Position numbers and translations under genes: made by a program. A DNA stretch of 63,965 bases, counting the filler, from Malassezia furfur (lineage: Eukaryota): NCBI GenBank assembly GCA_052055015.1. It is 4 parts of 4 records of this genome, joined end to end, with 100 filler letters (N's around TTAATTAATTAA, not from the genome) between each part and the next. Parts side by side here need not be neighbours in the genome. Positions count along the whole stretch, not along the records: positions 1 to 16,679 come from JBQJIT010000243.1; 3 more parts are not named here. One strand, given 5' to 3'. Below are positions 2,160-56,231 of the stretch, in pieces. How positions within the stretch are numbered: the stretch's first letter is position 1; every line of letters starts with the position of its first letter. The notes below the pieces were generated by a model. It was given only the letters and a program-made list of their open reading frames with translations. It was not told where the DNA came from and did no database searches.

Positions 2160-3953
2160 CTAGCTTGGCATTGGCGCACGCGGCGGAAGGTACTGCATCC
2201 CACCGGGAAAGCGTGCGGGGTCTGCATACGGCACGCCGTACCCTTTGGCGTACGGCGGGACGTCGTACTCGGGCGGCACGCCGCGCTCCTCGAGCGGCAC
2301 CGGCGCATCGTAGCCGCGCTCCATGTACCCAGGCGCTACCGGATACGACGGGCCATACCCAGCGGGCTGCGGCGGCGGCGCATACGGCGGATACATCTCT
2401 TGCATCGCCACCTCGTCCTGCCGCACGTACGGTGGGTACATGGGCGCCATCGGGCGGATGCCCATCTGGTCCATGTCCATCCACACGTCGTACTCGTCCA
2501 GACCGCGCAGGTCCGGGTACGCCATGTACGCGTGGATGTCCTCGTTGGGGTAGCGCTGCAGCGCATAATCGTAGCGGTCCACATCGCGCTGCGACCGCGC
2601 CGAGTACGCCGGCGGCTTGCGCACCAGCTCCGCCTCGAACGGCTGGTGTCGCCGGATCGGCTGCGGCGTGTCCAGCAGCCGCTTCTCCCGGTCGAGCCGG
2701 CGGCGCTTGCGCACTGTGTCCGAGATGAGGTCGCGGCGCACCGATGCCGCATCGTCACGCCAGTTGACCCACGCGATGGCATCCTCCGCCTTGGCCCACC
2801 GCGCCCGCTCGCGCTCTTCTTCGCCGAGCCAGTTTTGCAGCAGCGCCAGTCGCCGGTCGCGCCGCGCATCAATGATCATGTGCAGCAGCTGCAGCTCAGG
2901 GTGCGTCCCGTCGTGGATCATCTCGCTCTCGGCCTCCAGCTCCTCGAGCCGCTCGTGGTAAAGCCGGTCGCGCAGCATCGCATAGCCGATTTCGATGCGC
3001 GTCAGCAGGTCCACGGCTTCTTGCCGGCGCTGCATCGCTTCCACATCATCCTGCTCTGCGCCTTCGGCAGCAGGGGTGCCCGTGTCCTTCTCCTCGGCGT
3101 CCTGCTCACCCGCAGTGCCTTCGCCAGGCGCTTCGTCGCCGGCGTCTTCGCCAGGCGCTTCATCCTCCTCGCCCTGGTTGCCGGGCGCCTCGGCTTCATC
3201 GGGCTCATCCTTGACCGTGTCATCCCCACGCCCCTCCATCTCGGCGTCCAAGTCGTGCAGGCGCTCGCCCAGCTCCGACTCGGGCGAGTTTTGCCGGCTC
3301 GTCGCAGCCGACGGCGGCGCACTGCTGTCCGGATCGGGCTCGACCAACAGGCTCGGCGCACCGCCCGTCGCCGCCGCTCGCCGCTTGCCCGCAGCAGCGA
3401 TCACGGCACGACGGAGGGTCGAGCGGCCCTTGCGCGGCGTCGCCGGTGTCTCCACCGTGGTTTCCCCCGACTCGTCCTCCTCGTCGGAGCTGAGCGGAGA
3501 CGACGCTGTGGCCGCCACGATGGCATTGGGCGCCTCTTGCTCCAAGTTGGCCGTGGTCGATGCCACAGATGCGAGGCCCTCGAGCGCGTTGGGCGCCTCG
3601 TTGGGCGCCGCGGCCTCCTTGTCCGAGGCATCGTCGGAAAGCGTCGAGTTCTCTTCATCGCTCATCTCCGCCTCCTGCGGCCGCAACGGTTGCACTGTGC
3701 GGTCGGCATCGCTCTCCCCTTCTTCTGTGAGCTCGCTGCCCTCGCTAAACCCGTCGTCTGCGGGCGGCGGGGCGGGCGGCGCGTCCGGCACCCCTACCTG
3801 GGGAGGTGCTTCGAGCGGAGCGGCTTGCTCCATCGCTTCGTCGCTCGGACCGTCCGAGCCAGTGTCGTCAAACTGGAGCGGTTCCGTCTCGGCTTCCGAA
3901 GAGAGCGGTGACGTCGGTTCGTCCAGAGGGGGCGCTTCACCCGGCGTAGCCAT
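2160..3953 (-). CDS. DEP1: Sds3-like/Dep1 subunit of the Rpd3L histone deacetylase complex
   Basis: Acidic disordered N-terminus followed by the Sds3-type coiled coil RRQEAVDLLTRIEIGYAMLRDRLYHERLEELEAESEMIHDGTHPEL. Start taken at MATPGEAP. Confidence 0.75.
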   Translation of the reverse strand: MATPGEAPPLDEPTSPLSSEAETEPLQFDDTGSDGPSDEAMEQAAPLEAPPQVGVPDAPPAPPPADDGFSEGSELTEEGESDADRTVQPLRPQEAEMSDEENSTLSDDASDKEAAAPNEAPNALEGLASVASTTANLEQEAPNAIVAATASSPLSSDEEDESGETTVETPATPRKGRSTLRRAVIAAAGKRRAAATGGAPSLLVEPDPDSSAPPSAATSRQNSPESELGERLHDLDAEMEGRGDDTVKDEPDEAEAPGNQGEEDEAPGEDAGDEAPGEGTAGEQDAEEKDTGTPAAEGAEQDDVEAMQRRQEAVDLLTRIEIGYAMLRDRLYHERLEELEAESEMIHDGTHPELQLLHMIIDARRDRRLALLQNWLGEEERERARWAKAEDAIAWVNWRDDAASVRRDLISDTVRKRRRLDREKRLLDTPQPIRRHQPFEAELVRKPPAYSARSQRDVDRYDYALQRYPNEDIHAYMAYPDLRGLDEYDVWMDMDQMGIRPMAPMYPPYVRQDEVAMQEMYPPYAPPPQPAGYGPSYPVAPGYMERGYDAPVPLEERGVPPEYDVPPYAKGYGVPYADPARFPGGMQYLPPRAPMPS

Positions 3954-8812: not shown

Positions 8813-8996
8813 CCACATCGCGTCTCTGTATGGGTGTGCATCCAGTTGCATTTTCCAAAATTCAGCCAAGCTGAATAGTACATGTGGCTCGACACCACCT
8901 CTGTGGGCGCTCTAATCTACTAAACATCCATAGAGCAGCCGGCCAGAGTATTTCCATGCCAGCTGGCAGAGCCGGCGAACAGAGTACATCAGACAA

Positions 8997-9544
8997 TTAG
9001 ATGTACGTGTCGTAGGGCTGGGGAGCCAGCGTCACGGGCAGGTTCTCGTTGGTCGAGATGGTGTGGCCGTTGCGCGGCTGCGCGGGCTGACGCTTGAGGT
9101 CGACGTGCTCTGATGGTCAGTGGTACAAATACATACCGCCCCTCTCCTTGGCAGCGCGCTTGGCAGCCGCGTTGGTCTTCACACGGTTCAGGAAGTCGTC
9201 ACGGCACTTGGAGTGACGGACGTGCTCGACACGAAGGTTGACACGCTTCTCGATCTTGCGGTTGCCCACGGTCTTGTAGATAATCACACCCACTGATGGT
9301 TAGTATGTTGTTGCTCAGGTTGTCACATACCAGCACGGGGGAAGACGCCGTACACGACACCAGTGCGGCCCTGGTAGTACTTGTGCGGCATGCCCTTCTG
9401 CTCACCCGGGTCGGCGACAATGTCGACAATGTCGCCCGAGTGGAACGGCCTCAAGTAGCGGCTGACCTGAACCTGGCCATGCTTCTTGAACTGCTTGGCA
9501 AACATGTGCCTAGTGCGGGCCCTGTAACCATAACTGTGCGGCAT
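8997..9544 (-). CDS. RPL21: 60S ribosomal protein eL21
   Basis: [42 protein letters not shown]. Introns 9293-9330 and 9110-9136. Confidence 0.97.
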
Positions 9545-9709
9545 CTTGACAGATTACTCGGTGGGAGGCAGGACGTAGCGGCGCTTCGCAGGCGCTTGAG
9601 ACCCTCTTTGGAACTACATTCCGTCACGTGATAATTATAATTTTTCGGCCGGCGACGCGAGCGGAAGAAGAGGCACGCCTACGCTGTCTCTCACTCAACG
9701 CCTTCCAGC

Positions 9710-10321
9710 ATGCCGGTCGCTACTCACCACTGCAAGGGCGCGCCCCGCAACTACAGCAAGACTTACAAGGTTCCCCGTCGTCCTTTCGAGAGCCCTCGTC
9801 TGGACGCCGAGCTCAAGCTCGCGGGTGAGTACGGTCTGAAGAACAAGACCGAGATCTGGCGCATCGCCCTGACGCTGTCCAAGATCCGTCGTGCCGCTCG
9901 TGAGCTGCTCAAGCTCGACGAGAAGGACCCCAAGCGTCTCTTCGAGGGTAACGCCATTATCCGCCGTCTGATCCGCATCGGTGTGCTCGACGAGTCGCGC
10001 ATGAAGCTCGATTACGTGCTGGCCCTCAACATTGAGGACTTCCTCGAGCGCCGCCTGCAGACTCAGGTGTACAAGAGCGGTCTCGCGCGCAGCATCCACC
10101 ACGCGCGTGTGCTCATCTACCAGCGCCACATCCGTGTTGGCAAGCAGATCGTCACCTCGCCGTCGTTCATTGTCCGTCTCGAGTCCCAGAAGCACATCGA
10201 CTTTGCGCTCAACTCGCCGTACGCTGGTGCCCGCCCCGGCCGTGTTAAGCGCAAGCGCATGGCTTCGGCGGCCGCGAACGAGGGCGGCGATGAGGAGGGC
10301 GGTGACGAGGAGGAGGAGTAA
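9710..10321 (+). CDS. RPS9: 40S ribosomal protein uS4 (S9)
   Basis: [47 protein letters not shown]. Confidence 0.97.
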
Positions 10322-10329
10322 ATGCTCGT

Positions 10330-10494
10330 CCTCTGACCGTACCACTTTTTACCCGGTTCTAGATGCACACTGGCACTTCTCCCAGTGCGCATGTAGAAGG
10401 CTACTGGCAATTTTGTACTCTCTCTGGCCTCTAGGCCAGAAATCTTGCCCTGCAGCTAGTTGCTCTGTAGCAACACAAAAAGCAATACGAGAAG
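10330..10494 (-). ncRNA. Candidate structured RNA (four-way junction), family unassigned
   Basis: 14-bp closing helix plus three adjacent hairpins. Several pairs are G-U on the minus strand and would be A-C mismatches on plus. Lies in a relatively AT-rich, unusually long convergent spacer. Confidence 0.5.
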
Positions 10495-10544
10495 CGTAAA
10501 AGACATCTTTGCTTGGGAATCTATGTGCACCTCCTCCGATAGCG

Positions 10545-11679
10545 TCAACGTCGCGCATTGGCGTCCTTCAGCCGCGACTTGAACCGATTCAGACGCTGGT
10601 GGTTGGCAATCCGCGCGCGGTGCTCGTGGTCGTTGCCGCTGCCGCTCACATGGCTGCGCGGCGCGACCTGGAAGCCGGTCGTGACCGCCTGCGGAATGCC
10701 CACGTGTCGGCGCGTCTTGTCGGTGGAGACCGTGGCGCTGGTCACCTGGCTCGACGGGTTGTGTGGCGAGTTTTGGTACCACTCGGCCTGCGACACATGG
10801 CGGTCGCGGTACGACGCCGAGCGCTTGAGGATTGGGCGCGTCCACACCTCAATCAGGTGCTCGGCGCTGCGGCGGATGGGTGTTTCCACACGCTCGCACA
10901 GGCTGTAGAACACCACGACGCGGCCCAGCCCGCTCATCTTCAAACTGATCGTGTCGATCGTCATCTTCTCCAGCACACCAAATAGCTGCTTCTGGATGTT
11001 GAGCGCCGGCAGACTGCGGTCCGGCAATGGCTCCAGCCATCGCTTGACGCCCTCGAGTAGGTTGTTGTCCATAATCGCCTGGTGCAAGTGCGTCTTTTGC
11101 AGCGTGCTCACTACACGGGGAAGGAGGCGCAGCTTGGCCGTCGCGGGCTGCTTGAACTTGTTCGCCTCCTCGTCCTCATCCGCGGCAATGATCATTTCTG
11201 TCCGCAGTGCCGACACTTCTTCGTCGGCCATCAGCTCGAGATCGTCCTCGCCCGCAGCGCGACGGCGCGTCGACCGCCGCTTGCCCGCCTTGAGCGCGGC
11301 GTCAATCTGGGCATTCACCTGGGCACGAATCACTGCGGTGAGCCACGCAACGACATACTCTCTTTGGTTGACATGGCCGGCTGCTCCTCTTGCTCTTCGT
11401 GCTCCGATTCTTCGGCAGCAGGCGGTGCTGCCTCCTCCTCGTCTGTGCTCTTGCTCTTTTTTCTGTTGTGAGTGCACCGGGTACCTACTTCTTCTTCGGC
11501 AGGCTGGTCAGCGCGTCGTCCGCGCTGTCGACCTCCTTGCGGGGGATGCTCGGCAGCTGCGCTTCCTCGGGCGCCGGAGCCTCGCCGTGCTGTGACCCCT
11601 CGTCATCCGAGTCACCGCCTATGTGAGTCAAATGCGCACACGCACCAAAGATCTGCCGATGGTCTGCGTCGTCCGACAT
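10545..11679 (-). CDS. IWS1: Transcription elongation factor Iws1/Spn1
   Basis: [51 protein letters not shown]. Introns 11619-11645, 11463-11488, 11333-11358. Confidence 0.93.
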
Positions 11680-11842
11680 GCCTACTGCTGGCCGTCGTCG
11701 TCGCCCGCGCGTAACGACCTCCACGGCACACGCCTCCATTTCCTTGACAAAACATGCCCGCGTGCCTACAAGGGCTCTCCACCCGGCGCGTGTGGCCAGC
11801 GTCTCCTATGCTCGATCTAGCCGGCGGTGTGGCTCGCGTGGA

Positions 11843-13852
11843 ATGGCGTCCTACTCCATGAACGGTGCGAACCCCAATATGGGCGGCACGAATGGCGGAA
11901 ATGACCCAAATCGCCCAGAGGCGCCAGATTACACGCTTTCGGGTGTGCTGCACTTTCTCCAGAGCGAATGGCGGCGATATGAGCGCGATCGAAACAGCTG
12001 GTCGATCGAGCGTGCCGAACTGCGCGCGCGCATTGCGCTGCTGGAGGGCGAGCGACGGGGCGTGGAAAATGTGAAGAACGACTTGCTGCGCCGCATCAAG
12101 ATGCTCGAGTACGCACTGCGCCAGGAGCGCTTTAAGAACCAGGCGAATGCGCCTTCGCCTGCCGCTGCCACCGCGGGCGGCAAGCCAGCGGCAGACAAGG
12201 GCCCGACGAACGGTGTTTCAATGCCTCATACGCCGCAGAACGAAGAGGCAAACACCCCGCAGACACTCCAGGACGCGCAGCGGAGCGGCAAGAACCTTGG
12301 CGTACCGCCCAGCACGCACGTCAAGCTGCCCCTCGGCGTGAAGGATGCCAAGGGGCGCGCCAAGAGCCGGGCATATCTGCAGCAATGCCTGCAGGAGATT
12401 GCCTACCTGACGAGTGCCGCGACGCTCAACCCGCTCGCCGGGCAGGCGGAGGAGACCGATGCGTCGGTGCCGGTGCCGCCTCGTCCGCGCCTGGCGCTGC
12501 TCGAAAACGTGGGCGCCGCGGAGGAAAAGGAGGCGCCAAAGGCATCTGCGCCTGCTGAGGAGGCGTCTGTGGCTGCGCCTGAGCCGGCCTCGGCCAAGTC
12601 GGCCGCGCCGAGCGAGGCGCCCGACACGGGGGCGCCGGTGCCGCTCGTTGCCGTCGATACGCCGACTGTGGAGCGCAAGGAGCCGCCGCTTGCGGTCTCG
12701 GCGTCGCCCGAGGTGCCTGACCATACGTCGTCGCCCGTGCAGCCGCTCACGAGCGTGCCCGACGTGCAGCTGTGGAAGCTCAAATGTTCGATCCCCGCGC
12801 ATTTTGACTCGGTGCGTGCGACGGTGTTTGACTACAATGCGGACCGCCTCTATACCGCCTCGGACGATGCCACAATCAAACACTGGAGCATCAAGAACGA
12901 GTCCGAGGGCCTGTCCGCCGACCTGCTCACGACACTCCGTGGCCACGAGGCGGGCGTCACCTGCCTTGCGCTGTCCAAAGAGCGCCGGTTCCTGTACAGC
13001 GGCAGCCTGGACGCCACAGTGCGTGCGTGGGCGCTGCCAGCCCCCGGCGAGACCACCGAGCCCAGTGCGAGCACCGTGCTGGCCACCGTGCCCAAGGCCG
13101 TCTGGGGCCTGGCCCTCTTCCCCTACGGCGGCCAGGACGACGCGCTGCTCGGCAGTGTATCGGCGGACGGCTCGGTGCGGCTGTGGTGGACGGACAACGA
13201 AAAGGGCGAGCGGCTGCACTTCAGCTGGGACTACTTTGGCACCGATCCTAACAACGAAACACTCGAGGAGCGCGCGCAGATGGGTACACTGCCCGTCCCC
13301 ACGTCGATCACCGCCGTGCCCGCGAGCATGCGTGTGTGTGCCGTGAGCTTCTCGAACGGCGTGGTGAAGACCTTTTCGCTGGAGACTGGACAGGAGCTCA
13401 AGCGGCTCGTCTCGGGGACCCTGGCGCGCCCCGAGTGTGCGAACAAGCACGCCAACATGGTGGTCGCACACCCGACGCTGCCGCTCGTGGCGACCGCCCA
13501 GGAGAACAGCTATATCCACATGTACGATGTGATGACGGGCGCGTGTACCATGTCGCTGCATGCGCATGGCGACAGTGTGTCGTGTATCGACATTGACCCG
13601 TCCGGCCTGACGCTGGTGAGTGGCAGTCACGACTGTACGGTGCGCTTCTGGGACATTGGGAGCCCCGAGTCGCGCGACGGAACCGAGCAAGGCGCGCTGC
13701 ACGCGTCCCAGTCGCACTCGGCCGTGTGTTTCCAAGAGATCCGACCGCACGAGGTCAAGGCAAACGAGGGAGTGTTGTCGGTCGTATACCACGCCTCGGC
13801 GCCCCTCGTCGCCACCGCGGGCGCGGACGGCATAGTTCGGTTGTTCGGATAA
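11843..13852 (+). CDS. FAR8: Striatin (STRIPAK scaffold; Far8/Pro11) with WD40 repeats
   Basis: YTLSGVLHFLQSEWRRYERDRNSWSIERAELRARIALLEGE..DLLRRIKMLEYALRQER plus C-terminal WD40 repeats. Confidence 0.93.
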   Translation: MASYSMNGANPNMGGTNGGNDPNRPEAPDYTLSGVLHFLQSEWRRYERDRNSWSIERAELRARIALLEGERRGVENVKNDLLRRIKMLEYALRQERFKNQANAPSPAAATAGGKPAADKGPTNGVSMPHTPQNEEANTPQTLQDAQRSGKNLGVPPSTHVKLPLGVKDAKGRAKSRAYLQQCLQEIAYLTSAATLNPLAGQAEETDASVPVPPRPRLALLENVGAAEEKEAPKASAPAEEASVAAPEPASAKSAAPSEAPDTGAPVPLVAVDTPTVERKEPPLAVSASPEVPDHTSSPVQPLTSVPDVQLWKLKCSIPAHFDSVRATVFDYNADRLYTASDDATIKHWSIKNESEGLSADLLTTLRGHEAGVTCLALSKERRFLYSGSLDATVRAWALPAPGETTEPSASTVLATVPKAVWGLALFPYGGQDDALLGSVSADGSVRLWWTDNEKGERLHFSWDYFGTDPNNETLEERAQMGTLPVPTSITAVPASMRVCAVSFSNGVVKTFSLETGQELKRLVSGTLARPECANKHANMVVAHPTLPLVATAQENSYIHMYDVMTGACTMSLHAHGDSVSCIDIDPSGLTLVSGSHDCTVRFWDIGSPESRDGTEQGALHASQSHSAVCFQEIRPHEVKANEGVLSVVYHASAPLVATAGADGIVRLFG

Positions 13853-13861
13853 CTGCGTAGC

Positions 13862-13928
13862 AAAAACATAATTGTCTCTTACGAGACACTCTTCTCTGAT
13901 CATGATTGTCATCCTTACTGCAGGGACC

Positions 13929-13959
<31 letters not shown>

Positions 13960-13983
13960 TTCGTATGCTACCCGAAGGTGCAC
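13862..13983 (-). ncRNA. SNR6: U6 spliceosomal snRNA
   Basis: Minus strand reads GUGCACCUUCGGGUAGCAU (5' UUCG stem-loop), then AAAUUGGAACGAUACAGAGAAGAUUAGCAUGGUCCCUGCAGUAAGGAUGAC (ACAGAGA box, AGC triad, ISL), and ends in an oligo-U Pol III terminator. Confidence 0.97.
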
Positions 13984-16519: not shown

Positions 16520-17656
16520 ATGTCGTCCGACGCGCCGCGCCCGGGCGCCTTGGCATGGGGAGCCGACGCGCGCGCGTCTGCTCTCGCCGAGCGCTCGCCA
16601 CACGTTCGTCTGCGAGCCCGCGCCGTGCCACGTCGCCGCGCTGCGGGCGTCGCACTCGCCGCCGACCGCACGCCGCAGCNNNNNNNNNNNNNNNNNNNNN
16701 NNNNNNNNNNNNNNNNNNNNNNNTTAATTAATTAANNNNNNNNNNNNNNNNNNNNNNNNNNNNNNNNNNNNNNNNNNNNCGCCTGCCGCGCAATCGCACG
16801 CGTCGCCGCCGGCGGCTTCGCCTGCTCGGCGCCGCGCACCGCCCGCGGAGCCGGCACCGACCGTCGTTGAAGACGTGTTCCAGTCGCGCTCGATCCCACC
16901 CGAGGCACGCGCAAGGTCCCAGCGGAGCACGCCGAGCAAGAAGCGCACGCGTGACCGGGACGCAATGAAGATCGGCAGCGACGTCTTTGCGGCCGGGTCG
17001 GCGGAGCCTGCGCGCTCGCCCGCACCCAAGAAGGGCAAGCGCACGCGCGCCGCCGATGAGGCTGCACAGGACGCAGCCCAAGAGACTCGTGCAGCGGCGA
17101 CTACCGAGGCGCCCGAGCCTCCTACGCCGCCGGCCGACGAGGCACAAGAGACCGGCGCGCCCGAGAACGGCGTGTCGACGGACGCCGCACCAGAACACCC
17201 ACCGCCGGCAACGGAGGAGGGCCAGGAGCCAGGCGCAGCCGAGGCCCAGCCGCCCGCCGACGAACCCGCTGCGCGCGAACCCGCCGCGCCGGCGTCCGAG
17301 GCCGCGGGTGCAACCCCAGCGTCCCAGCCCACCGCGCGCGGCGCGTCCCCAACGGCGCCTCTCTCCGCGCAGGACGCGCGTCGGCGCCTCTTTGGAAAAC
17401 GTACGTCATCGTCTCTATTCACACAGCACTCCCTACCCTGCTGGCGCAGCGCAAAGCGGCGCCGACCACGAGCCGTTCAGCCGGGCTGCAACGGACGACG
17501 CGGATCCCTCCGCTACACACGAACCGAAAACCGCCGCCGCCGCCGAAACCGCGCGCGGTGTCTTCCAAGCCCAAGACGGACGAGCCTGCGGGCTCGGACG
17601 ACGAGGAGCGCGAGCCCGAGCCCGAGATCGACTACGAAAACGAAGGGTTCTTGTAA
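16520..17656 (+). CDS. Hypothetical low-complexity protein interrupted by an assembly gap
   Basis: ATG at 16520 and an open frame after the gap. Intron 17401-17426 gives the C-terminus ..RSAGLQRTTRIPPLHTNRKPPPPPKP..EIDYENEGFL*. Continuity across the gap is not proven. Confidence 0.45.
16680..16779. other. Assembly spacer (N run with TTAATTAATTAA six-frame stop linker)
   Basis: Identical 100-nt artificial linker occurs three times in the window. Confidence 0.99.
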
Positions 17657-25739: not shown

Positions 25740-26561
25740 ATGTCGATCTTGTCCCTGGGTGCTCGCCGACTGGCTCCTGCGCTTGCGCGCCGTGCGTGGG
25801 CCGCGTCGCCGCGCATGGCCGTCGCCGTGCCGCAGACAATGCTGCGTACACCCACGCGTGTTGCCGTGCAAAGTACGTGAGAGGCTTACGCAGCGTACGC
25901 GACTGAAAAGGACAACTCGGTGTCGTTCAACGACCCGACCGAGCAGGAGGCGCAGCGCTTCCTTGAGCTCGGCACGATTGCGCTCGAGGTCGGTGACCTT
26001 GAGAAGGCAATGGTACGTCGCTCGTTGCTGACTCAGGAACACTACCGCAAGAGTCTCGAGGTGCGCGAAAATGCCTCGGCGTACTACAACCTGGGCGTGT
26101 GCCAGTACCAGGACCAGGACCTGGAGAGCGCCATCACCTCGTGGAACGAGGCGCTGCGCCTCGCACCCGACAGCCCGGATGCGCACACGAACCTGGCGTC
26201 GGCGTACATCATGTCGAAGCCGAGCCGCCCCGACCTGGCGCTGGAGCACCTCCGGTATGTAACGCTATACTAATGCAGTACCGCCGCATCGCAGAGCCCC
26301 GACGATGCCGAGATCCACTTTAACCTCGGTGCCGTGCTTGAAGCGTGTATGTCGTGTGCGCTGACTGACCCAGGCGAGGAACTCGAGGAGGCCATTGAGG
26401 CGTACAAAAAGGCGGTGCAGGGCGGTATCGAGGTAGGTACACCCAGCTCACCCCAGCGTGCCGAGCAGAATGTGCGTAACTGCATGGCCAAGATCATGTC
26501 GGCGCGTCTCGATGTCGAGAACCAGCAAAAGGCAGGCGGCGCCGCCAACGACAAGTCGTGA
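25740..26561 (+). CDS. TPR-repeat protein with a predicted mitochondrial presequence
   Basis: AYYNLGVCQYQ, AHTNLAS, IHFNLGAVLE. Five introns: 25873-25893, 26013-26036, 26255-26278, 26347-26373, 26433-26456. Confidence 0.85.
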
Positions 26562-31251: not shown

Positions 31252-32782
31252 ATGGGGTTCGTGGACGTCGAGGCGCTCGTGGCCTACGACCTGACGCATG
31301 TGCAGTGTAGGTGAGCCGCTGACGCAGACCATGCGCATGATCCGTGGGGCCCGTGGTGGGCGTTTGTCACGCTGTCGCCCGTGCTGGTGCTGACGGTGTA
31401 CGTCGCCGTCTTCCTGCACCGCCGCGAGCTGACCTATCTCAACGTGCTCATCGGCCAGGTGCTGTGCGAGATCATCAACGGCAAGCTCAAGCGCCGCATC
31501 CAGCAGCACCGCCCGACGAACGTGCTCGGGTCGGGGTACGGCATGCCGTCGTCGCACTCGCAGTTCTGCGGCTTCTTCGCGGCGTTCTGGGTGCTGCACC
31601 TCCTCGCGCACGCGCCTCAGCGCCGCGGCACGTACGCGCGCAGCTACGTCGCGCGCGTCGTGGATCGCGGCGTGGCGCTCGTGCTCATCGTCGGCCTCGC
31701 GGCCCTCACGTGCTACTCTCGGTAGGTCGCACGACTCACCCAGGCACTACCTCGTGTACCACACCCCCGCGCAGATCTGTGTGGGCGCCTCGCTCGGCGT
31801 CGTGCTCGGCAGTGCGTACTACCTGGCGACCGAGGCCATTCCCCGTAGCGCGCCGGCGCACTCGGCGCTCGGCCGCGCGCGCCGTGCCTTCTACACGAGC
31901 CGCGTGAGCCGTGCGCTGCGTCTGCGCGACGCATGGACCGTGTGGGCGGACGGCAGCGAGGACCACACGTACACGCGGTGGCGCGCCGAGCTGACCGCGG
32001 ACCCCCGTGCGGGTGAGGTCGCGCTGCGCAGCGATGCGCCCGCGCACGTCCGCATGATGCTGCAGGCGCTGCAGGAGGCCGACCAGTGCGACGCGGTGCC
32101 GACCGCGTTCTCGGTCGGGTGCGTGATCGCGGCCGCGGGCGCGTCGCTCGCGGAGCCCGGCACGCCGCTCAACGCGGTGCCGGTGCTCGAGCCGTACGCG
32201 CTGTTCACCGGCTTCTCGCGCGAGCTGCCCGGCAACACGCACGCGGAGGAGTGTGCGCTCGAGAAGCTCGTGCGCTACTGCGCGCGCACGCCCGAGGTGC
32301 GCAGTGCACAGGCCGCCGCGGACGCCGCGCAGAATGCGCCGCTCCAGCTGCTTATGTACACGACGATGGAGCCGTGCTCGCAGCGCCTGAGCGGCAACAT
32401 GGCGTGTGTGGAGCGCATTTTGCGCTTCAACACGCGCCCGCCCGTGACGACCGCCGCGTGGCTGCTGCGTGCGAACGCGCCGCTCGCCGTGCACGGTGCG
32501 GCGCCGGTGCACCCCGATACGACGCTGCGCCCGTTGCAGATTGCGCTCGTGATCCAGGGCGTGCGTGAGCCGGACGACTTTGTGCTGTGTGAGGGCCAGA
32601 ACCGGCTGCGCGGCGCCGGCATCGACGTCGTCACTGCGACGCCCGCCGCGTCGCCCGGCGTGCTCGGCGTCACGCTACCGAGCCTGTCCTCGATCACCAT
32701 TCCGGTGCGTGCGTCGAACGCGACCGACTGGCTCGAAGACGCGTGCCTGCGTATGGCCAAGAAAGGGCATGCTACAAAGTAG
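31252..32782 (+). CDS. CAX4: Fusion of a dolichyl-pyrophosphate phosphatase (PAP2, Cwh8/Cax4) and a Rib2-type DRAP/cytidine-family deaminase
   Basis: PAP2 motifs KRRIQQHRP, YGMPSSHSQF, SRHYLVYHT. These are in frame with TGFSRELPGNTHAEECAL, YTTMEPCSQRLSGNMAC and GVREPDDFV. Introns 31307-31327 and 31722-31743. Confidence 0.88.
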
Positions 32783-33419: not shown

Positions 33420-33519
33420 NNNNNNNNNNNNNNNNNNNNNNNNNNNNNNNNNNNNNNNNNNNNTTAATTAATTAANNNNNNNNNNNNNNNNNNNNNNNNN
33501 NNNNNNNNNNNNNNNNNNN
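33420..33519. other. Assembly spacer
   Basis: N run with TTAATTAATTAA. Confidence 0.99.
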
Positions 33520-50067: not shown

Positions 50068-50167
50068 NNNNNNNNNNNNNNNNNNNNNNNNNNNNNNNNN
50101 NNNNNNNNNNNTTAATTAATTAANNNNNNNNNNNNNNNNNNNNNNNNNNNNNNNNNNNNNNNNNNNN
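50068..50167. other. Assembly spacer
   Basis: N run with TTAATTAATTAA. Confidence 0.99.
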
Positions 50168-55383: not shown

Positions 55384-56231
55384 ACCGCTGCCGTGCCATC
55401 TGCATGAGCCACCCAACGTCCACCTACCGAGCGCAGCATCGCCATCGTAGCCGCCTCTTTGCTTTGCAGCGCCGCGACCCGCTCGTTCCGCGCGGCCGCA
55501 CGCTCCGCGGCACGCTCCTCTTGCCGCCCCTGTCGCCGCTGCGCCTGCCGGTCGCGCTCCGCCAGCCTGGGTCAGCAAGTCACGCCCACGTACGCATCCT
55601 GGAAGCTGTTCCCGAGACCCAGTAGTGCATCAGTTGACATTGTGTCGCCCACGTCGTCGTCTACATCGCGCCGCTCGGCCATCGCGCGGTTCGACGCAGC
55701 GACTTCGCGCCGACGCTCACGCACTGCGTCGCGCCCGGTTGCACGCGGCGCCTGCTCCTCGGCCCATTCTTTCGCGTCACGCCGCTCAGCACGTCGCGCT
55801 CGCTGCGCCGCACGCCGCGCCTCTTCCTGGGCGCGCTCGCGCTCGTATTGCCGGTCAGCTGCCGAGCGCGGTGCGTCGGTGCGCGGCGCCGACGCGGCGC
55901 CTTGCGTGGTCCGCACCGGCGATGCACTGCGCGGCCGCGCACCAGGCCGCGGTGGTGATGCACTGCGCCGCAGTGCGCCTTCATCCGCAAAGCGCCAGCG
56001 GTACCGCGTGCCTTGCACCGGCGCAGCCGTCCCCGCATAGTAGCGGTCGCTCAGGCGCCCATCGTTCCACCGGCGCACGAACCGGGCAAAGTAGCGCCGC
56101 GCGTCTTCGCTGGGCATCTCGTCCAGGTAGTGGTCACGCTCCTCGAGCCATGCGCGGAACTCGCGCGCGCGTGCATAATACGCGTCGTACCCTAGCCGCG
56201 GCGCACCGTGGGGCAGCGCCGGCAGCGTCAT
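55376..56231 (-). CDS. Conserved Arg/Glu-rich nuclear protein (style cell-cycle inhibitor 1-like family)
   Basis: YY..EFRAWL..ARRYFARFVRRWNDGRLSDRYY..KEAATMAMLRSMARQRF. Introns 55567-55593 and 55400-55427. Confidence 0.75.

Follow-up and report, generated by a model that had tools for sequence, protein, structure and literature searches.

Among fungal ribosomal-protein genes, rps0 and rps20 have been described as carrying candidate structured motifs in their 3' UTRs (Li & Breaker 2017, PMC5640933), and in yeast RPS28B a 3'-UTR stem-loop is bound by Edc3/Rps28 (PMC8047918). RPS9 autoregulates by splicing in yeast and in animals, and it has been suggested that S9 may bind its own RNA in the manner of bacterial S4 (Plocik & Guthrie 2012, PMC3315480). 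Outside the ribosomal-protein genes, a multi-stem junction has been reported in the 3' UTR of GLY1 in Saccharomycetaceae (Gao, Jones & Rivas 2021, PMC8216456). In the available text of the two fungal motif screens (PMC8216456 and PMC5640933), the taxa reported are mainly ascomycetes; the name RPS9 occurs in the text of neither, and IWS1 does not occur in that of PMC8216456.

Here we analyze a structured element in the spacer between RPS9 (uS4) and IWS1 in the basidiomycete-like compact genome of Malassezia furfur. How does it compare with these systems? As with rps0, rps20, and RPS28B, in the available accounts of which an mRNA feedback is presumed, stable hairpins lie directly 3' of a small-subunit ribosomal-protein coding region, and structure is also found downstream of the same gene in a relative, locus L005 (z -5.6 and -5.93). 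Unlike the rps0 and rps20 motifs, which the available text defines by conserved sequence and some covariation over many species, the hairpins differ here between two genomes. The GLY1 structure, as described in the portion of PMC8216456 at hand, is similar in being a 3'-UTR structure of ∼150 to 165 nt with four stems round a multi-stem junction in one lineage. It belongs to another gene and clade and has 16 covarying pairs, whereas the junction analyzed here is not conserved in the one orthologue available. The bacterial S4 alpha-operon and the RPS9 splicing circuit involve the same protein family, known to feed back on its own transcript; the targets described in the sources available are a bacterial 5' leader pseudoknot and eukaryotic introns or alternative splicing, none of them a 3'-UTR hairpin array. 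If real, a 3'-UTR element of RPS9 would place RPS9/uS4 among the few eukaryotic ribosomal-protein genes that have such a structure, and it would provide a concrete RNA for testing the S9 self-binding proposed in the available text of Plocik & Guthrie (PMC3315480).

The window is the whole stretch of DNA that was analyzed, 63,965 nt (64 kb) with filler. Its plus-strand ORF at 9710-10321 can be assigned to RPS9/uS4 because Ribosomal_S4 and S4 domains are present, and the minus-strand ORF from 11477 to 10545 matches solved IWS1 structures (3nfq, E 2e-40; 7xn7, E 6e-41), in agreement with the neighbors named in a preliminary description of this DNA. RPS9 and IWS1 are convergent, and their stop codons flank the element at distances of 9 nt (RPS9) and 50 nt (IWS1), in a spacer of 223 bp with a G+C of 0.46 to 0.54 (window, 0.66). 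The features are as follows.

8997-9544, minus strand: gene that we take to be RPL21-like, adjoining RPS9
9710..10321, plus strand: RPS9 (uS4) ORF with Ribosomal_S4 and S4 domains; stop codon 10319-10321
10306..10334, plus strand: weak hairpin whose loop holds the stop codon of RPS9; its stem joins the Glu-tail codons to a CU-rich tract immediately 3'
10330..10494, minus strand: whole element, four-way junction, -73 kcal/mol, top outlier of 5044 windows
10494-10490 with 10334-10330, minus strand: outer helix of the fold, CUUCU/AGAGG, 5 bp
10489-10476 with 10351-10338, minus strand: closing helix of the fold, 14 bp, 4 of them G-U
10476..10494, minus strand: 5' strand of the closing helices (CUUCU plus a 14-nt strand with a U5 run), within the sole block conserved with L005
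10330..10351, minus strand: 3' strand of the closing helices (UAAAAAGUGGUACG ... AGAGG), its end 9 nt from the RPS9 stop codon
10459..10474, both strands: arm 1, a 6-bp hairpin, all Watson-Crick, its sequence conserved in L005 (hairpin d)
10400..10456, both strands: arm 2, a stack of three helices that has a perfect 7-bp palindrome at its apex (10423-10440); -26.4 kcal/mol on minus, -18.2 on plus
10357..10398, both strands: arm 3, a hairpin of 16-17 bp with one C/C mismatch; -23.6 kcal/mol on minus, -21.0 on plus
10459..10493, both strands: block of ∼35 nt that a local alignment places against the L005 spacer in the same orientation
10545..11477, minus strand: IWS1/Spn1-like ORF (last exon at least) with a TFIIS helical-bundle domain; stop codon 10545-10547

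Folding of the minus strand (10494..10330) revealed a four-way junction of 61 bp, including 8 G-U pairs, with an energy of -73.0 kcal/mol (z -6.01; 0 of 200 dinucleotide shuffles as good). The preliminary description had drawn this junction; refolding returned all of its helices exactly, and the RNAfold comparison with shuffles placed it well outside their range. The plus strand of the same segment (10330..10494) reached -54.1 kcal/mol (z -3.46; 1/200 shuffles as good), so that in the window minus is the better folder by about 19 kcal/mol and alone closes the junction. The bias that had been noted toward the minus strand is also present in this window, with 8 G-U pairs in the minus fold versus 1 in the plus fold and no A/C mismatches in the minus-strand helices. 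Five of the eight sit in the two closing helices, and all three arms, which nearly abut inside the closing helix, fold on either strand; their loops are ACAG, UAGA, and GAGAAGUG on minus and CUGU, UCUA, and CACUUCUC on plus. The hairpin core (10357-10474) had a z of -4.32 on plus and -7.35 on minus, and each beat 200 of 200 shuffles.

We then asked how unusual such a structure is in the window. Every 165-nt segment was folded at steps of 25 on both strands (5044 folds) and energy was regressed on G+C. The element was the top GC-adjusted outlier at -5.2 sd, and the next independent site stood at -3.7 sd. The spacer structure is not a general property of ribosomal-protein or convergent spacers here: the convergent spacer beside the RPL21-like gene (8875-9116) folded in an ordinary manner (z -1.9 and -1.2), and no other spacer came near the signal.

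Does the element belong to a known RNA family? An Rfam scan of 9000-12000 at E<=10 returned 5 weak matches, none within the helices of the element; one of 16.8 bits, a chance match, ends at 10338 and covers only the last 9 bases of the element. At gathering thresholds the whole window yielded only U6 (13877-13981), ARAGORN found 0 tRNA genes in the window, and Rfam on L005 2900-3500 gave sub-threshold chance matches only (22.3 bits versus 50; 16.6 versus 70). A tRNA-like cloverleaf is excluded by dimensions, since arms of 16, 57, and 42 nt and a 14-bp stem are far from those of a tRNA. A U5-like RNA was considered from a CUUUUAC word at about 10507-10513 and an Sm-like U-run, and it was rejected because Rfam gave no U5 match and the L005 spacer lacks the word. 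L005 also carries an AUGAUGA (C-box-like) word beside the RPS9 stop at 3054-3103 (minus), where SNORD11B scores 22.3 bits against a gathering score of 50. A C/D box RNA was rejected on the grounds that this word is not conserved in the window and the SNORD11B match (22 bits) is far below its threshold of 50. A repeat or mobile element was discarded as well, there being no second copy within the 64-kb window, and a small ORF at 10349-10558 (minus, 69 aa) was taken as chance. RNase III substrates of the Rnt1 type are stems capped by an AGNN tetraloop; none of the window or L005 loops is one, which argues against an Rnt1p-type substrate.

Transcription by Pol III is ended by a run of 5 or more T. 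The element has T5 runs inside it on both strands (10477-10481 on minus, 10346-10350 on plus) and no T-run after it on either, which argues against a Pol III small-RNA gene spanning it. An independent Pol II gene is improbable because the 223-bp spacer between two stops leaves almost no room for a promoter. The U6 snRNA gene of the window (13877-13981, minus; 77.8 bits, E 5e-18) occupies a gap of ∼220 bp between converging ORF ends at 13852 and 14073, so small RNA genes are able to occupy spacers of this size in this genome. As the preliminary description had it, then, no known RNA signature is present, and the element is a member of no described RNA family. Neither a discrete RNA gene nor a conserved four-way junction is demonstrated by these data.

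Relatives of the locus were sought in several collections. A metagenome scan with IWS1 gave 0 relatives and one with RPS9 gave 80 loci; the scan of prokaryote assemblies gave 39 loci, none close (the best was a 576-bp contaminant contig without 3' flank), and the scan of viral contigs gave 0 relatives. By tblastn, IWS1 was present in L005 only, among 119 loci, and all comparative statements made here rest on two sequences, the window and L005. In L005 (G+C 0.52), RPS9 (2471-3079) and IWS1 (4348-3332) are likewise convergent, across a 252-bp spacer; the encoded proteins are 95% and 80% identical in amino acids to their window counterparts, and synonymous sites are saturated between the two genomes.

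Our data revealed that the L005 spacer is also highly structured. The whole spacer folded to -80.5 kcal/mol on plus (z -3.6, 13 G-U) versus -62.4 kcal/mol on minus (z -1.2, 3 G-U). At 3095-3262 the plus strand formed a five-way junction (z -5.6; 0/200 shuffles as good) and the minus strand had a z of -2.5, and the hairpin core (3122-3236) gave z -5.93 on plus versus -3.13 on minus, each beating 200/200 shuffles. Overall, the plus-strand z of the L005 spacer structure was -5.6 to -6.2. When the 5.6-kb locus was scanned with adjustment for GC (722 folds), the strongest outlier again fell here (3046-3210, plus; -4.98 sd). Of the four L005 hairpins, three form on plus alone (plus versus minus: a, -4.9 versus 0 kcal/mol; b, -12.5 versus -4.7; d, -9.3 versus -4.5), arm c is symmetric at -16.9 kcal/mol, and L005 has 10 G-U pairs in its plus fold versus 0 for minus. 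The plus loops are UGUC, CUAUUC, ACUGC, and GUG. Measured from the RPS9 stop, the plus closing helix begins at 26 nt and the hairpins at 42 nt, and ∼95 unstructured nt precede the IWS1 stop. The element is thus real, statistically outstanding, and positionally conserved in the sole relative available.

Is the fold itself conserved? The two spacers gave no match by blastn. Local alignment found a single block of ∼35 nt, covering the 5' closing strand and arm 1, with a score of 24 (shuffles, 16.9 ± 2.3; 5 of 300 as high), and the arm sequences are otherwise unalignable between species. An inversion of the element between species was considered and rejected (inverted alignment score 19; 56/300 shuffles as high). 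In the minus minimum-energy folds of both species the block supplies the 5' side of a long closing helix, which in L005 has 17 bp. By eye the order of hairpins is alike: the conserved small hairpin by a U-run is followed by a perfectly palindromic one, and this by one or two that are imperfect. We built two covariance models, each from a single sequence: R1, from the window junction, scored the L005 spacer at 6.0 bits (E 0.69) and a non-orthologous place at 7.1 bits, and R2, from the L005 plus fold, gave the window spacer at most 4.2 bits. Homology of the fold between species is therefore not demonstrable, since neither model finds the orthologue above noise. In the syntenic comparison that the preliminary description had looked to, the L005 spacer is strongly folded, but it prefers plus and can be aligned over only ∼35 nt.

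The G-U biases of the two species are opposite, about 8 to 1 for minus in the window and 10 to 0 for plus in L005, and they fit no single-strand model. A word of caution follows from this, in that the G-U bias of the window pointed to the strand opposite to the one its orthologue prefers; where convergent genes overlap at their 3' ends, strand calls from a single genome are unreliable for that reason.

Pairing probabilities were computed for transcripts with many different ends. The window arms held in all 49 contexts, on both strands, at 0.66 to 1.00 (arm 1, 0.66 to 0.98; arm 2 apex, 0.99 to 1.00; arm 3, 0.91 to 0.99). The window closing helix on minus had a probability of 0.60 to 0.96 in 12 of 12 contexts starting at or above the IWS1 stop and may collapse with other 5' ends; on plus it was at most 0.06 for RNAs that begin within RPS9 coding sequence. 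In L005, plus hairpins a to d stood at 0.73 to 0.97 in 23 of 25 contexts; in the remaining two, arm b dropped to 0.04 and 0.59. The L005 plus closing helix fell to 0.09 or less for RNAs that begin within RPS9 coding sequence or pass 3262. On L005 minus, hairpin c alone was robust (at least 0.97), hairpin d varied from 0.33 to 0.83, and the 17-bp closing helix had 0.20 or less in the 14 contexts reaching beyond the local segment. The 14-bp closing helix is specific to the window and to the minus strand. What the two species share is a tandem array of three to four stable hairpins that starts 9 to 45 nt after the RPS9 stop and folds on plus in both.

We also folded the 180 nt after the RPS9 stop, on both strands, in 65 eukaryotic loci (L083 was not among them) with a threshold of z<-3; where the match of a locus stopped at residue 161, the stop codon was located by extending in frame and is approximate if an intron intervenes. 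Only L005 passed (-5.5 on plus, -3.5 on minus), and the other 64 loci ranged from -2.64 to +1.90. Strong structure is thus no general property of RPS9 downstream regions, with 64 of 65 loci lacking z<-3, and it appears lineage restricted because it is absent from these 64 more distant loci. The weak hairpin around the RPS9 stop codon had a z of -2.3 in the window, and its L005 counterpart (3050-3106, plus) a z of -2.56, the second lowest of 72 loci; in both species, then, structure extends into the final RPS9 codons.

We tentatively read the element as a lineage-specific, fast-evolving structured 3'-UTR element of the RPS9 (uS4) mRNA, on the plus strand, and we put the probability of this reading at roughly 40%. 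Several observations point to it: both orthologous spacers are extreme, each the top of its scan (of 5044 folds in the window, of 722 in L005); among 65 RPS9 downstream regions only that of L005 reaches z<-3; and the array lies closer to RPS9 than to IWS1 (9 versus 50 nt in the window). Plus is also the only strand that keeps all hairpins of both species in realistic contexts, L005 arms a, b, and d are plus-only with 10 G-U on the plus fold, and the plus hairpin cores beat all shuffles (z -4.32 in the window, -5.93 in L005). The run of structure into the last RPS9 codons in both species and the precedents of the rps0, rps20, and RPS28B 3'-UTR structures and of RPS9 autoregulation argue in the same direction. 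The conserved unit would be the three to four tandem hairpins a few nucleotides past the RPS9 stop, occupying most of the 223-bp gap to IWS1, and the minus-strand four-way junction would be a by-product in this genome of A-rich and U-rich flanks that happen to pair. An RPS9 transcript presumably covers the element, and the role that we infer for the folded 3' UTR is that of a binding platform setting the fate of the RPS9 message. Possible routes would include protection of the 3' end or a feedback in which free uS4 or a decay factor acts on the message, on the model of the loop between the RPS28B 3'-UTR stem-loop and Edc3.

Against the plus strand stands the window itself, where minus folds better (core z -7.35 versus -4.32; -73 versus -54 kcal/mol; G-U 8 versus 1), where the 14-bp closing helix forms on minus only (0.60 to 0.96 in the 12 contexts from the IWS1 stop or above), and where the conserved 35-nt block is the 5' closing strand on minus in the folds of both species. 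Could the functional RNA then be a minus-strand one, that is, a four-way junction that lies in the distal 3' UTR of IWS1, antisense to the 3' UTR of RPS9, or is processed into a small RNA? The z of -6.0 for the whole element and -7.35 for its core, the 8 G-U pairs with helices free of A/C mismatches, a closing helix that persists in every context starting at or upstream of the IWS1 stop, and the return of a 17-bp closing helix, built on the sole conserved block with arm 1, in the L005 minus fold are all consistent with this. We nevertheless consider it unlikely, as minus is weak in L005 (z -1.2 for the spacer, -2.5 for 3095-3262, -3.1 for the core), where one of four hairpins is robust on that strand and the 17-bp helix does not exceed 0.20 in 14 extended contexts, and as model R1 scores the orthologue at noise level. 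The 3' UTR of IWS1 would moreover need at least 215 nt and would end within 9 nt of the RPS9 stop, and a separate gene meets the U5 run at 10477-10481, which speaks against Pol III, and a 223-bp spacer without room for a Pol II promoter. The undescribed ncRNA or IWS1 3'-UTR element of the preliminary description therefore survives as a structure that is real, exceptional, and unmatched in Rfam; as a minus-strand four-way-junction RNA it finds no support in L005, whose spacer prefers plus, whose closing helix is not a conserved one, and for which the reciprocal covariance models remain at noise.

A strand-independent terminator or insulator would accommodate the opposite strand biases of the two species, as well as arm sequences that turn over fast while their stability is kept. 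Hairpins in nascent read-through RNA, whether it comes from IWS1 or from RPS9, a very active gene, would be cleaved by an RNase III of the Rnt1/Pac1 type or would favor termination in some other way, and each converging gene would be shielded from antisense transcription; a role of the palindromes at the DNA level falls under the same account. The hairpin core beats 200/200 shuffles in all four combinations of strand and species, the site lies between convergent genes of which one encodes a ribosomal protein, and, as in RNase III fail-safe termination, stem-loops 3' of a highly expressed gene could serve both directions. In the available accounts, hairpin cleavage by fission yeast Pac1 triggers termination (PMC8421224) and Rnt1p acts after termination failure at RPL8A (PMC8047918). 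We doubt this account all the same: selection on two strands should purge G-U pairs, yet each species has 8 to 10, all favoring one strand; the stems are short (at most 17 bp) and without AGNN tetraloops; and such structure is not general in the genome, being absent from the other convergent spacers of the window, including the ordinary RPL21-side spacer at 8875-9116 (z -1.9, -1.2). The spacer could finally lack any selected function, its palindromes having arisen by mutation (e.g., template switching) under low constraint and its conserved A-rich and U-rich blocks being the poly(A) signals of the two genes, complementary by chance. The closing helix indeed presents, as its 3' strand and as the plus complement of its 5' strand, two nearly identical A-rich words, each read on the sense strand of one of the genes; they share AAAAAG and UACG and between these differ at three positions, all transitions. 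The context dependence of the closing helices fits such an origin, as do folds that are not homologous by covariance model and conservation limited to the 35-nt block (5/300 shuffles as high). An absence of function is still not the probable outcome, because each of the two orthologous spacers ranks first among the outliers of its own region at about -5 sd, 0 of 64 other RPS9 downstream regions reach z<-3, and unselected hairpins should have decayed where synonymous sites are saturated and the spacer is unalignable by blastn.

Within the RPS9 3'-UTR reading, one specific form deserves mention. In the ribosome, uS4 grips a multi-helix junction of small-subunit rRNA. It is conceivable, though quite improbable in our estimate, that the hairpin array is a eukaryotic 3'-UTR operator, in which free uS4 binds the folded 3' UTR of its own mRNA and triggers decay or silencing; binding of uS4 to the element is here pure conjecture. 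Such an operator would be, by analogy, a 3'-UTR counterpart of the bacterial S4/alpha-operon loop. The lineage may lack the intron-based RPS9 circuit, and an operator of this kind would answer how S9 senses its own transcript. In a bolder variant, the same DNA could also yield an IWS1-strand four-way-junction RNA, coupling ribosome supply to a transcription-elongation factor.

Some further observations were made along the window. The second-ranked GC-adjusted outlier lies at 55826-55990 (plus; -108.2 kcal/mol, -3.7 sd, G+C 0.76), and other structure outliers are found at 32026-32190 (plus) and 25876-26040 (plus). The segments 16680-16779, 33420-33519, and 50068-50167 hold six runs of 44 N in three pairs, with 12 bases between the members of a pair, and are filler joining the parts. 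At the other end of the RPS9 gene, the ORF carries what we take to be ∼8 more N-terminal residues than RPS9 has elsewhere. This N-terminal extension is conserved in L005 (window 9682-9745, plus; L005 2442-2500), and DNA conservation with L005 reaches 28 nt upstream of the RPS9 ATG. The 5' extension might reflect a short 5' intron, the use of an alternative start, or a conserved leader.
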